DNA of 64,000 nucleotides. Origin: Escherichia coli (GTDB taxonomy: Bacteria > Pseudomonadota > Gammaproteobacteria > Enterobacterales > Enterobacteriaceae). A model generated the notes under the pieces. That model saw only the letters and a program-made list of their open reading frames with translations. It did no database searches and was not told the origin of the DNA. Location of the stretch: assembly GCF_003018255.1 (NCBI RefSeq), contig NZ_CP027440.1. One strand, written 5' to 3'. A program made the translations under genes and the position numbers. Positions 12,140-57,027 of the stretch are shown one piece after another (position 1 is the first letter of the stretch; each line of letters opens with the position of its first letter).

Positions 12140-14180
12140 TCACATCCAGTCCGTGACCGGACGTGTCATCAATATCAATACTGCGAGCCTGCCACCCTTC
12201 CGGGGCAACCAGCTCCACACGGGCAGAGGCTTTTTGTACCGCCTGTCCACTGCTTTCATCATCACTGCCCCGTAATTTCTGCCAGGCTTCAGTCAGCCAT
12301 CCCCCCAGATAGTTACCGAGATAGCTGCCCACCGTAGAACCAATGGCAATCCCCACAGGTCCGGCTGCCGCCCCCAGCGCACCACCGGCAATACTGCCTG
12401 CAAGAGAGCCGACCGCTTCTCCCTTGTCTGTGGCACTGGCGCTGCCATCCAGCAGAACCGGGGCTGCCATCGCGCCAGCCCACAGGGCACCTCCACCCAG
12501 CCGGCCGGCCAGTCCACCGGCACTGCGGAAAAAGCCGGAGAAACGCCCCAGCCCCATGCGGCTACCGACAGACGAAAGTAACCCACCGGCGCGCCCCATC
12601 ATGCGCCCCCAGAACCCTGCCCCACCAGAAGAGGGAGACGGTGGCACTGGGGACGGTGGCAGGGGAGGCGTGACCGGTCTTCCGCGCCCCGGTCCGCGTT
12701 TCCTGCGGCCCCGCCCCTGACGTCCGCCTGAGGATGTATCGGTCGCGCCGGTGCCGGACAGTCCTCCTGTGGGCCAGTTTGTTACAAGTACTGGCTGAAC
12801 GGCTGCCGGATTTACCCCGGTAAGAAAGTTTATAAAACGTTGCCCTCGTCCCTGAGATGTGCCTGGTGGTGTTCCGGCCGGAGGAGAGCGCCGGAAAGGT
12901 GAAGTCAGGAAGGCCGCCGCTGATAATCCGTATCCCAGCAATGCAGCACCCGGACGTATAATCCCCGTTCCGACAGCCCGCGCCATTTTCAGGGCACGGG
13001 TGGCGAGATACATGTACAGCAGGTATTTCGCGGCAGTCTGTGCCCCCTGACCAATGCGATCCAGCGCATCACCATAGCCCGCATCCCGCAGAGCCTGAAG
13101 CGTGTCGCGTACCTTTCTGATCGCCTGATAAAACCCTGTCACTGCATCACGGGCATACTCAAAGCCCTGGTTCATGGCTGATGCCGTGCTTTCCGCCAGG
13201 GAATGGTAACTGCCATCAGATTTGGCACTGTCAACCCATGAAAGAAATCCCCTGAGATTACCCTTCAGTTTTTCAAATGGCCCACTGTCCATCACATCCC
13301 GGGCAAACTGGTCCCAGACGTCACCCATCATGGCCGTCAGGCCACTCCAGGAATTCATTGCGTCCTTTTGTGCTCCCCTGGCCTGTTCCGCCAGCGTCTG
13401 AAATAACAGGCGAATACTGTCCGGCCCAAGCAGCCCTTTTTCACCAAGTTTTCTGACCACTTTCTGGTCCACACCCAGACGATCAGCCAGCACGCGGTAG
13501 GCATTAATGCCGTAGGTGGCAAGAATATTTGCATCCGCCGCCTGAATACTGCCTCTTGCATACATCTGTTTCAGTTGCAGGGATGCCCCCTGTGCATCGG
13601 ACAGTGACCAGCCGCCCACGGCCCCCTGATCCTGAAGCATGGTGACAAAATTTCGGGCCTCCCTGTCACTCATACCAAAGCCCAGACTGGACGTATATTC
13701 CTGCATGACGCCAGCCAGCCCCCAGGTGGTTTCCTTCGCATTCTGTATTGCCCACCTGCGGACATCATCCGTTTTCGCCCGATCCCCTTTGTAAAGGGAG
13801 TTCAGGCGAATCATATAGGTTTCCATCTCCGCTGCCGGGCGAATAAATCCCCGGTTAAAGCCATATACAGCAGCACCACCGGCCAGCATTCCGTAAAGAT
13901 TGCTGATCCGCCCGATGGTGCCGGTAATACTGCCCTGAAGACGGTCAAAATCAGAAGTGACATGGCGGATACTGCCCCGCACCCCGGCCAGCGTGCGCTG
14001 CATCCTGCTTCCGAGTACATCTGTTTCCTGCCCGGCACGGCGGGCAGCATTTCCCAGGCCACCCAGCCCCGCCTGGCCGGAGCGTGAGAATGCCCCCAGC
14101 TCCTGTGACCACTGGCGGGATTTGGCTGAGATATTGCCGAGCAAATCAACTATCAGAGATGCTCTGAGATTTCGGGCCAT
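12105..14180 (-). CDS. Tail tape measure protein
   Basis: 691 aa with long Gly/Ala/Pro-rich low-complexity region; lies downstream of tail tube and chaperone. Confidence 0.8.
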   Translation of the reverse strand: MARNLRASLIVDLLGNISAKSRQWSQELGAFSRSGQAGLGGLGNAARRAGQETDVLGSRMQRTLAGVRGSIRHVTSDFDRLQGSITGTIGRISNLYGMLAGGAAVYGFNRGFIRPAAEMETYMIRLNSLYKGDRAKTDDVRRWAIQNAKETTWGLAGVMQEYTSSLGFGMSDREARNFVTMLQDQGAVGGWSLSDAQGASLQLKQMYARGSIQAADANILATYGINAYRVLADRLGVDQKVVRKLGEKGLLGPDSIRLLFQTLAEQARGAQKDAMNSWSGLTAMMGDVWDQFARDVMDSGPFEKLKGNLRGFLSWVDSAKSDGSYHSLAESTASAMNQGFEYARDAVTGFYQAIRKVRDTLQALRDAGYGDALDRIGQGAQTAAKYLLYMYLATRALKMARAVGTGIIRPGAALLGYGLSAAAFLTSPFRRSPPAGTPPGTSQGRGQRFINFLTGVNPAAVQPVLVTNWPTGGLSGTGATDTSSGGRQGRGRRKRGPGRGRPVTPPLPPSPVPPSPSSGGAGFWGRMMGRAGGLLSSVGSRMGLGRFSGFFRSAGGLAGRLGGGALWAGAMAAPVLLDGSASATDKGEAVGSLAGSIAGGALGAAAGPVGIAIGSTVGSYLGNYLGGWLTEAWQKLRGSDDESSGQAVQKASARVELVAPEGWQARSIDIDDTSGHGLDVNVWNGGNYGLW

Positions 14181-14306
14181 ACTTACTGCTTCGTTCTGAT
14201 GATTTTTTCTGTCTGTCGGCAGTGCCGGTAAAGTTGCGACAGGGGGAGGTTAAGCGCCCATTCCGGACCGCTTTTTGTCACCATCCCCAGGATAATTGCC
14301 GCTTCT

Positions 14307-14801
14307 TCAATCTGATCCCGACACTGCGCCTGATCGCCCCCGGTCAGCTGCCAGCTTTCCGGCAAGCGCGGTATCCAGCAGGCTGACCGCTGCCATCAGG
14401 CGGGAGAGATCGCGCTCGCTTAACTGTCCAATCTGACGGGGTGACAACGGACCTTCAATGTCTCCCACTGCGGCAATCTGACGGCGCAGCAGTGCAACAC
14501 CGCGTAACGACGGAGACGCTATCAGCATCGGGCCATTGTTTGTCTCCACCACGCGCTCGGCTTCTGCTTCTGCGTCAATACTGTCTTTCGCTGTCAGTTC
14601 CCGGAACGTGACACGATATTCACGGGTCTCACCAAACGGCAGACCATCAAGCAGATCCACATATCCCTTTGCCAGTTGCTCTGTCAGCCCGGCAGTGCGT
14701 GGATCAGCCCCCTCAAGTGCTTCCCGGATTGCCTCCATCACGGCTGCCTCGGAAACTGCCGTTTTTTTCTTACGTGTGGTCATTTTATTTTTCCTGATCA
14801 C
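14307..14801 (-). CDS. Tail assembly chaperone (possible frameshift extension into 14183-14365 frame)
   Basis: 164-aa ORF between tail tube and tape measure; overlapping +1-frame ORF runs to the tape measure start. Confidence 0.6.
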   Translation of the reverse strand: MIRKNKMTTRKKKTAVSEAAVMEAIREALEGADPRTAGLTEQLAKGYVDLLDGLPFGETREYRVTFRELTAKDSIDAEAEAERVVETNNGPMLIASPSLRGVALLRRQIAAVGDIEGPLSPRQIGQLSERDLSRLMAAVSLLDTALAGKLAADRGRSGAVSGSD

Positions 14802-15163
14802 TGAACACGGGTACTGGTGGCGCTGGCGAACTTCACGGAGATCTCCCCGCCACCGTCAAGCGAGGCCGGTTCACTGCTCCAGGCCTTCGTCATCATGTGG
14901 ACTTCGCCGGTATCCGCCACAAACTCGATAGTGACCGCAGTCCAGTTGTTGATTTCATCAGCGGCTGGTGAGCCTTCTCCGCCTGCCGGAAATTTGCAGT
15001 CCAGCGTCGCTTCACGTGGTTTCTGGCGGTAACCATAGACTTTCGCGCCTTTCACCACTTCACGTTCAAAACCTGACGGAGAAAATGTAGCCCCCTCAAG
15101 CGTCTCGTATTCCTGACCGTTCACACGGATAGTGGCCGTGCCCTGATACTGTTTTCCGCTCAT
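14798..15163 (-). CDS. Tail tube protein (Mu M-like)
   Basis: 121 aa immediately downstream of sheath. Confidence 0.75.
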   Translation of the reverse strand: MSGKQYQGTATIRVNGQEYETLEGATFSPSGFEREVVKGAKVYGYRQKPREATLDCKFPAGGEGSPAADEINNWTAVTIEFVADTGEVHMMTKAWSSEPASLDGGGEISVKFASATSTRVQ

Positions 15164-15171
15164 GCCTTACC

Positions 15172-16674
15172 TCACAAAATGAAACGGATCTGTGCTGCCA
15201 GGAAGCGGAACTGGTTAACCAGATCCGGCGTGCATAACACGTCAAGACGGTTTCGATCTGACGCATTACGCTCCACAAGCAGATTCTTTTTAAAGGTGTC
15301 CAGATTTTCGACCAGCCCGAGTTCCACCCACTCTTCACCCAGCGAAATTAACTGAAGCTTCATGATCTCCGGCGTCACGATATTCTGACCGGCACGAACG
15401 GGCGTCCCGTCATCAGCCAGTTTATGGCGCGGAAAACGTTGTGTGATAAAAGTACGCAGGGAATAACGCAGCCAGGAGAGGGTGTAGATGGTTTCCACAT
15501 CCAGATAGCTGGGATCACTTTCGCCGTACACGTTCTGGCGATACATGGTCACCTGACGTTCGATCTGAACCACATCACCGGCAGCCACACTGACCGTGGC
15601 AATCCCTCCCCACAGCAGACTGTTACGCTCTTCACGCGTCAGACGATCGGCCGGAGCCGGGGCCATGCGTGACGGAAGCGCCAGCGTCTGAAGCGGACGC
15701 GCAGGATCTGCTCCCAGAGAGGGTGCACAGGTGGCACAGACCGCCGCTGCCCAGAGGTAATCCGGTTCAGGGGCTTTGGGAATGGATGTGCAGGTCGCCA
15801 GAAAATCATTGCGTTTTGCCCCGAATGCCTGCACCTCACCAAACGTGCCGGTATGTGCCAGCCACAGCACGCCGTCAGACATTTTGGCCGGTCCCCAGCG
15901 TTTCAGAAGCTCATCACTGATGATTTTCAGGTTTGCATCATCCTTATAGGGCATGACGACATAGTTGTACTGGCGATCGCCCATCCCCGCCACGCTTCGG
16001 GTGATATCCGGGTTAGCCGCTTTTTGTTTCGGATAGGCTATAGCGACCTGTATTCCTTCCGGGGTTGCTTCCCCGTCGTGATAGTTCAGGCGCACATCAT
16101 GAACGGAGCATTCACCGGTAAAGCGGGCGGTGATCCCCAGAGACCCTTTCAGACCTGCGCCATTATCACCACTTCCTGCACCAGAGGAGGCCGTGAAGGG
16201 CGCGTCAGGATCGGCATTGATCAGCGCGGCCAGCTCGTCGGTCAGTTCTTTGCCTTTCTTACCTTTTGGTGCCGGGAGTGTATAACGCCGCCCCCCCACG
16301 CAGGCATAAACAATCCCGTCACGGGTGACCGTTCCGGTCAGATTCATGGCCGCAGCCGTTGCCTGTCCGGTGCCGTTCCCCTGAGCAATGGCATACAGTT
16401 CAGCATCAGGATTGATGGCGATAAATTCCGCCACCATCAGGGCAATCATGGAACCGCGCCCCCAGAGTTCTGTTGCCTGAGACGCACGGGTGATCCTGAC
16501 CGGAACATCCAGAACACCGGCACCGTCCACGGCATTCTCTTTCATTCTCGCCTGACCAAACAGCAGCACACACTGACGCTGTGCCGGAGTGCCGGTGACA
16601 GCCATGGAGTTATTAAACTCAACCTCAATCAGCGGTATACGGCGGTCATTACCGATCCCGTCAAAATTAATCAT
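15172..16674 (-). CDS. Contractile tail sheath protein (Mu L-like)
   Basis: 500 aa, position. Confidence 0.85.
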   Translation of the reverse strand: MINFDGIGNDRRIPLIEVEFNNSMAVTGTPAQRQCVLLFGQARMKENAVDGAGVLDVPVRITRASQATELWGRGSMIALMVAEFIAINPDAELYAIAQGNGTGQATAAAMNLTGTVTRDGIVYACVGGRRYTLPAPKGKKGKELTDELAALINADPDAPFTASSGAGSGDNGAGLKGSLGITARFTGECSVHDVRLNYHDGEATPEGIQVAIAYPKQKAANPDITRSVAGMGDRQYNYVVMPYKDDANLKIISDELLKRWGPAKMSDGVLWLAHTGTFGEVQAFGAKRNDFLATCTSIPKAPEPDYLWAAAVCATCAPSLGADPARPLQTLALPSRMAPAPADRLTREERNSLLWGGIATVSVAAGDVVQIERQVTMYRQNVYGESDPSYLDVETIYTLSWLRYSLRTFITQRFPRHKLADDGTPVRAGQNIVTPEIMKLQLISLGEEWVELGLVENLDTFKKNLLVERNASDRNRLDVLCTPDLVNQFRFLAAQIRFIL

Positions 16675-21008: not shown

Positions 21009-21129
21009 ATTGCCTCCGTATAAAATATGAATATAAAATAAGCAGGCGGTCAGTGTACGCTTAACTGGTAAAGTCGGTGCCTGCCTCCGGGTGGATCATG
21101 TATGCGGGTTCGACCCCCGCCACTGACCG

Positions 21130-56951: not shown

Positions 56952-57027
56952 TGGTGCCCGGACTCGGAATCGAACCAAGGACACGGGGATTTTCAATCCC
57001 CTGCTCTACCGACTGAGCTATCCGGGC
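56952..57027 (-). tRNA. pheU: tRNA-Phe (GAA)
   Basis: Reverse complement is GCCCGGATAGCTCAGTCGGTAGAGCAGGGGATTGAAAATCCCCGTGTCCTTGGTTCGATTCCGAGTCCGGGCACCA. Confidence 0.97.

Follow-up and report, generated by a model that had tools for sequence, protein, structure and literature searches.

The tail assembly chaperone of phage Mu, gp41, has an extended counterpart, FS-gp41, which is said to arise by a −2 programmed ribosomal frameshift described by Xu, Hendrix and Duda in 2004, and the Mu-type arrangement has reportedly been on record since that year. The use of −2 frameshifting by Mu is noted in a review (PMC5009743), and as of 2012 Mu provided the only natural programmed −2 case known, with an efficiency of ~2.2 % (PMC3498833). 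In a purified translation system, the bare 10-mer of the Mu site was found to cause a 14 % shift into the −2/+1 frame, as measured by a reporter assay that is unable to separate −2 from +1 (bioRxiv 10.1101/2025.10.02.679949). In the chaperones of the lambda/P2 type, neither form is present in the virion, and tail assembly in lambda requires both G and GT at a defined ratio (PMC5009743).

Here we describe a locus within a 64,000-nucleotide stretch of an Escherichia coli genome (contig NZ_CP027440.1; hereafter the window). Judged by its sequence, its slip site matches that of the experimentally verified −2 frameshift of Mu, now within a Mu-like prophage of E. coli O157:H7; the shift is unannotated here, and its mechanism is already known. 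In our estimation, the locus very probably makes two tail chaperone forms from one start codon via a −2 frameshift, as phage Mu does.

Layout of the locus and its counterpart in phage Mu

All genes concerned lie on the minus strand (Table 1), the tail tube gene directly adjoining the chaperone gene on its upstream side. The chaperone ORF comprises 158-164 codons, depending on whether ATG 14783 or GTG 14801 serves as the start. It had first been delimited, in a reading of the sequence only, as 14307-14801, of which the stop is retained; the GTG 14801 start, which comes from a mechanical ORF list and overlaps the stop codon of the tube gene, is possible but less likely than ATG 14783. The latter is favoured because AGGA precedes it by nine bases and because RefSeq uses the same start (WP_000213225.1, with coordinates identical to those of the chaperone in Table 1).

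Between the chaperone stop and the tape measure start lies a gap of 126 nt. In the +1 frame, 70 codons are open between stops at 14398-14396 and 14185-14183 (14395-14186; six-frame translation and ORF list); this open stretch shares 86 nt with the 3' end of the chaperone gene, and its closing stop lies two bases ahead of the tape measure ATG at 14180. This is the layout that the sequence-only reading had described, in which the chaperone ORF ends and an open +1 frame continues to 14183 beside the tape measure start. The stretch where both frames are open is the sole place in which a shift can connect them, and within it, as within the slip site, lies a run of five G (G5) at 14341-14337. The −1/+2 frame, on the other hand, is open only from 14343 to a stop at 14280-14278, ~21 codons, nine of which lie beyond the chaperone stop.

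Table 1. Features of the tail chaperone locus and its neighbours in the window
Feature	Coordinates	Strand	Evidence or detail
Tape measure protein gene, 691 codons	12105..14180	−	phrog_973 tape measure, E=1e-224; RefSeq 'tape measure protein'
Predicted frameshift extension, +1/−2 frame, 51 residues GDQAQCRDQIEEAAIILGMVTKSGPEWALNLPLSQLYRHCRQTEKIIRTKQ	14183..14338	−	GGC 14338-14336 to TAA 14185-14183
Zero-frame tail assembly chaperone (Mu gp41 homologue), 158 aa	14307..14783	−	ATG 14783 to TGA 14309-14307
Overlap, zero frame and +1/−2 frame both open	14307..14395	−	six-frame translation
Slip site CGG_GGG_CGA, zero-frame codons	14334..14342	−	CGG 14342-14340, GGG 14339-14337, CGA 14336-14334
Tail tube protein gene (Mu gpM homologue)	14798..15163	−	phrog_185 tail tube, E=7e-38; RefSeq 'phage tail tube protein'
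Sheath gene	15172-16674	−	part of the contractile-tail module in the window

The locus shares with Mu gp41/FS-gp41 the gene order of tube, chaperone and tape measure, the Pfam family of the chaperone, the slip motif in the same register, and a homologous extension ending just ahead of the tape measure start. The chaperone matches Gp41_Mu (PF23746, E=1e-31), more weakly Phage_TAC_7 (PF10109), and the tail assembly chaperone family phrog_508 (E=1.7e-48), while no model in NCBIfam matched either protein form. It is 49 % identical to Mu gp41 (tblastn to Mu, E=4e-26), and the extension is 52 % identical to the C-terminus of Mu FS-gp41 over 46 residues (E=1e-11) and belongs with phrog_12783 (E=1.6e-37). 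Furthermore, the Mu zero frame reads GAA CGG GGG CGA GTG and that of the window GAC CGG GGG CGA TCA, the nine central bases and their register being identical, and the site stands in column-for-column alignment with those of Mu and D108. The earlier proposal that the G5 run at 14337-14341 in the overlap serves as the slip site is supported by this match. Unlike in Mu, the chaperone of the window is ~14 residues longer at its N-terminus, the overlap measures 86 nt instead of 35 nt, and the zero-frame tail past the site counts nine codons instead of seven; moreover, the fusion product of Mu is annotated, whereas that predicted for the window is not.

The position of the Mu slip site was fixed by exact look-up of a reconstructed −2 product in a collection of 15 billion proteins. 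When tRNA-Gly on GGG is moved back by two bases and decoding is resumed at GGC, the rebuilt Mu product of 188 residues is exactly that of Swiss-Prot P0DJY4 / GenBank UIW09302.1, which carries the extra glycine and is named 'Probable tail assembly protein FS-gp41', whereas the +1 version of the Mu product was absent from this collection. In the GenBank record of Mu, the corresponding CDS, Mu_56, consists of two pieces and bears the remark 'verified -2 translational frameshift in PMID 15469818; tail assembly chaperone frameshift product'. A full-text search of the literature for the motif (GGGGGCGA, 'GGG GGC') returned nothing relevant.

For the window, the predicted fusion CDS is join(14783..14337, 14338..14183), in which bases 14338-14337 would be read twice to give 200 aa, and its extension is predicted to be helical (pLDDT 83-88). 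RefSeq leaves the 126-nt stretch 14181-14306 (minus strand) empty, as seen also in O157:H7 genomes (RefSeq NZ_CP066756.1, 2542576-2542701), and in other records the downstream frame is deposited as a free-standing 60-residue 'hypothetical protein' starting from TTG 14365. The window's own −2 and +1 fusion sequences were both absent from the same protein collection, and the product is therefore unannotated for this prophage. Its correct annotation would be a joined −2 frameshift CDS of 200 residues, and the value of the present analysis lies mainly there and in a comparative definition of the Mu-type site; the understanding of tail assembly is left unchanged.

The surrounding annotation is that of a complete Mu-like prophage, with transposase, Gam, Mor, lysis genes, portal, gpT head protein, sheath, baseplate, an invertible fibre region and Com, and the chaperone locus is flanked by the tube and the tape measure gene of this contractile-tail module. 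Chromosomes of E. coli O157:H7 carry an 801-bp segment of it with 100 % identity, and at ≥99 % identity this segment is found in 194 of 228 matching records from complete E. coli genomes. The prophage may be the Sp18-type Mu-like one of O157 Sakai, with which it agrees and which was described as predicted intact (PMC2669165). Elsewhere in the window, a tRNA-like element labelled 'tRNA-OTHER' by RefSeq (21049-21128, plus strand) is located between the genes for head morphogenesis and for virion morphogenesis, in the orientation opposite to that of the late genes. It scores 31 bits against the Rfam tRNA model in a local search, has an over-long anticodon region (24 nt versus 18 in the model), and was missed by ARAGORN and by the whole-window Rfam scan. 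The sole tRNA above threshold in whole-window scans is a standard tRNA-Phe (GAA) gene at 56952-57027 (minus strand), beyond the prophage late region.

Conservation of the slip site and its surroundings

Relatives of the locus were gathered from phage records, E. coli genomes and viral contigs, and removal of duplicates left 73 distinct junction regions, with chaperone identities to the window from 100 % down to ~33 % and including phages of Vibrio, Shewanella, Pasteurella, Alteromonadaceae and Klebsiella. The +1 frame reaches farther past the chaperone stop than the other frame in 72 of the 73, typically for 38-47 codons up to the tape measure start, and G_GGG_CGA is present in register within the overlap in 72 of 73 as well, its nine-base versions being CGGGGGCGA (58 relatives), AGGGGGCGA (4), AAGGGGCGA (7), TCGGGGCGA (2) and CAGGGGCGA (1). 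An alignment with Mu-like phages had been suggested as a check at the outset, and both the overlap and the G run are conserved in it. The lone exception is a viral contig (L069), in which a four-G run fuses the two frames and a second indel follows ~70 nt downstream (1540-1640 of L069), which suggests either an error of sequencing or a copy in decay. As for the −1/+2 frame, its length past the chaperone stop varies among relatives from 1 to 32 codons, with one outlier of 127.

GGGGCGA is the sole invariant block in a nucleotide alignment of 30 sequences. The codon before GGG varies (CGG, AGG, AAG, TCG or CAG, encoding Arg, Lys, Ser or Gln) with its final G constant, and the C of CGA is invariant although a change from C to A would be silent in both frames; because these two positions are kept fixed, selection appears to act on the RNA rather than on either protein. 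In some relatives, the stretch that permits a shift extends no farther than 6 nt ahead of the G run and 3 nt beyond CGA. Together with the Gp41_Mu family assignment, the Mu record and the homologous extension, the 72 of 73 relatives support what the sequence-only reading had claimed, namely a two-product chaperone obtained by a +1/−2 shift. That reading had also set this frame apart from the usual −1 as an unusual variant; the target frame was right, but the variant is not unusual, since it is standard across the Mu gp41 family.

No conserved RNA structure was found downstream of the site, as RNAalifold predicted no pairs on 30 diverse sequences. When 54 distinct relatives were folded one by one, most z-scores were unremarkable, with values of −3 to −5 for a few Pasteurellaceae-type and other sequences, and the 50 nt downstream of the site in the window fold no better than shuffled sequence (z=−0.1). 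In the Pasteurellaceae-type relatives L030, L107, L111 and L112, a long hairpin is possible 5-50 nt after CGA (z down to −3.7); nothing comparable is present in the window, in Mu or in the family consensus. This subgroup hairpin was rejected as a family-wide feature, being paired in 61 % of cells versus 51-55 % when slid by one codon. This negative result fits the low efficiency in Mu and the activity of the bare 10-mer, and the lack of a detectable conserved RNA stimulator may be useful for recoding predictors.

Proposed −2 shift and alternative readings

In the mechanism that we propose, most ribosomes would translate the zero frame to its TGA (14309-14307), yielding the 158-residue chaperone, while a minority would pause with tRNA-Gly on GGG (14339-14337) and the A site occupied by CGA. 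Pausing at this codon, whose decoding is probably slow because of an inosine-adenosine wobble, is assumed here by analogy with Mu. The peptidyl-tRNA-Gly would then slip two bases upstream, where it could re-pair perfectly with GGG 14341-14339, and decoding would restart at GGC (14338-14336) and proceed to TAA (14185-14183), thereby producing a 200-residue fusion (…LAADRG-GDQAQCRDQ…RTKQ; predicted −2 junction peptide …LAADRGGDQAQCR) beside the 158-residue main form. A fixed low shift rate, such as that of Mu, would set the ratio of the two chaperone forms. By analogy with lambda gpG/gpGT, the shared N-terminal part would coat the tape measure protein and the extension would recruit the tube subunit, these assembly roles of both forms being assumed from lambda for Mu-type myovirus tails.

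The direction of the shift in this prophage, −2 versus +1, is taken from Mu only. The claim made from the sequence alone, a +1 shift that was held equivalent to −2, was correct as to the frame; by homology, −2 would be the direction rather than +1. Ten of the 72 relatives have a run of only four G, with AAG, CAG or TCG before GGG_CGA, and in them a −2 slip would place the tRNA on AGG or CGG with a first-position mismatch; hence ~1 in 7 distinct relatives would be unable to re-pair perfectly after such a slip, and the −2 direction may fail to hold for the whole family. These G4 sequences are L053-L058, L026 and L027 (AAG GGG CGA), L075 and L078 (TCG GGG CGA), and L061 (CAG GGG CGA). A −1 slip on the G5 run would also re-pair perfectly, leading into a dead-end frame of ~20 codons with its stop at 14280-14278 (window 14278-14341, minus strand), and any product of it would probably be a by-product, its frame length varying among relatives. 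One could also imagine, though we hold it to be rather doubtful, that the family-invariant G_GGG_CGA acts as a 'hungry A-site' element permitting −2 or +1 slippage according to the upstream bases and on G5 maybe also the equally well-paired −1, with a third, truncated product ending at 14280-14278, which would make it a site of multiple outcomes instead of a pure −2 site.

That the two products result from a +1 shift seems to us improbable, though less so for the G4 relatives. In this case, tRNA-Gly would move from GGG to GGC while slow CGA leaves the A site empty, giving a protein of 199 aa (…LAADRG-DQAQ…; predicted junction peptide …LAADRGDQAQCR) with one glycine fewer. The same frame is reached by +1 and −2, the reporter of the 2025 preprint cannot discriminate between them, and the invariant core is only G_GGG_CGA, such that in the ten G4 relatives −2 re-pairing is no better matched than +1. 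However, Mu, whose 9-mer is identical, is curated as −2, and its curated protein carries the extra glycine, and on G5 the −2 re-pairing is perfect whereas +1 creates a mismatch at the wobble position. In addition, a +1 shift gives no role to the invariant G upstream of GGG, and −2 is favoured over +1 because this G matters only for backward tRNA movement.

The extension itself shows the marks of protein-coding selection. Compared with relatives ~85 % identical, the part past the chaperone stop shows 7-8 synonymous versus 2-5 non-synonymous codon changes, the differences clustering at third positions of the +1 frame, a pattern indicating that the gap is under purifying selection in this frame. 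Among the peptides of the family, similarity sets in precisely at the slip-site GG, and +1-frame stop codons occur 2-4 codons upstream of the site in Mu and in a Shewanella phage, both of which argue against the very improbable reading that the downstream frame is a separate gene of 60 aa with its own initiation at TTG 14365. A TTG-initiated ORF of this length is indeed present, is deposited as such in some E. coli records, and has a parallel in phage D108, whose annotation contains a distinct gene 41.5 ('gp41.5'). However, no Shine-Dalgarno sequence precedes TTG 14365, this codon is TGG in close relatives, and over the +1-frame interval from the preceding stop to the motif 24 of 72 relatives lack any ATG, GTG or TTG and 54 of 72 lack ATG; since start codons are so often absent and TTG 14365 is replaced by TGG, independent initiation is not a conserved option.

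Equally improbable is slippage of RNA polymerase instead of the ribosome, with two G added or one G lost on G5 in some transcripts. The insertion of two G would yield the same protein as a −2 ribosomal shift, and in-frame Mu-type fusions of 187 aa with a shorter G run occur in some assemblies, alongside L069. Two of them, P0002 and P0008, both assemblies of public sequencing runs, encode 187-residue fusions reading …TQERGEW… and …TQERGQW…. Productive transcriptional slippage in bacteria requires runs of ~8-9 or more A or T, by which measure G5 is short, and the invariant CGA after the run would have no role in it but fits an effect in the A site. Homopolymer errors in sequencing, mutation or reads derived from slipped transcripts may account for the fusions of L069, P0002 and P0008, and errors or mutations are the simpler explanation of the shorter runs, L069 having a second indel nearby.

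Finally, a chance open frame in a GC-rich non-coding spacer between chaperone and tape measure, as +1-frame runs of at least 70 codons, 5.6 % of the runs in neighbouring genes of this GC-rich phage DNA, might suggest, is effectively refuted by the homologues of the extension in Mu and phrog_12783, by the frame kept in 72 of 73 relatives and by the mostly synonymous substitutions. Because 5.6 % of neighbouring runs are as long, the length of the open frame is by itself weak evidence, and the case for the −2 shift into a conserved extension depends on position, homology and conservation rather than on ORF length.

Comparison with other recoding systems

The locus resembles lambda gpG/gpGT and P2 gpE/gpE+E' in that two chaperone forms sharing an N-terminus would be encoded just upstream of the tape measure gene, their ratio being set by a low-efficiency shift. 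In contrast, the −1 shifts of lambda and P2 come about when tandem tRNAs slip on an X_XXY_YYZ heptamer, whereas here the +1/−2 frame would be entered through the slippage of a single P-site tRNA on a G run. The overlap contains no X_XXY_YYZ heptamer, and its −1/+2 frame is short and not conserved. Unlike lambda G, to which the locus has no detectable sequence similarity, P2 E is linked to it in sequence, solely by the weak Pfam match to Phage_TAC_7, the family that includes P2 E. An assignment to the lambda-type −1 G/GT sequence class was thus rejected, and the locus would work like lambda G/GT only in its logic.

With respect to the slippage itself, the proposed mechanism is closer to the +1 shift of E. 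coli prfB (RF2) at CUU_UGA_C, where likewise a single tRNA slips in the P site during a pause caused by a poorly decoded codon in the A site, and the same target frame is reached. Nevertheless, the RF2 shift is +1, has a stop codon in the A site and an upstream Shine-Dalgarno-like stimulator, and is autoregulatory, whereas here a sense codon, CGA, would occupy the A site, the shift would go back by two and the search for a stimulator was negative.

Natural −2 frameshifts are rare, and the arterivirus nsp2TF is one of the few other programmed examples (PMC5009743). Unlike the present locus, it operates in eukaryotes and requires a trans-acting protein that binds downstream, both the site and the biology being unrelated. 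The Mu site, to which that of the window corresponds base for base, is compact and strongly conserved as G_GGG_CGA, from phages of Enterobacteriaceae to those of Vibrio, Shewanella and Pasteurella.
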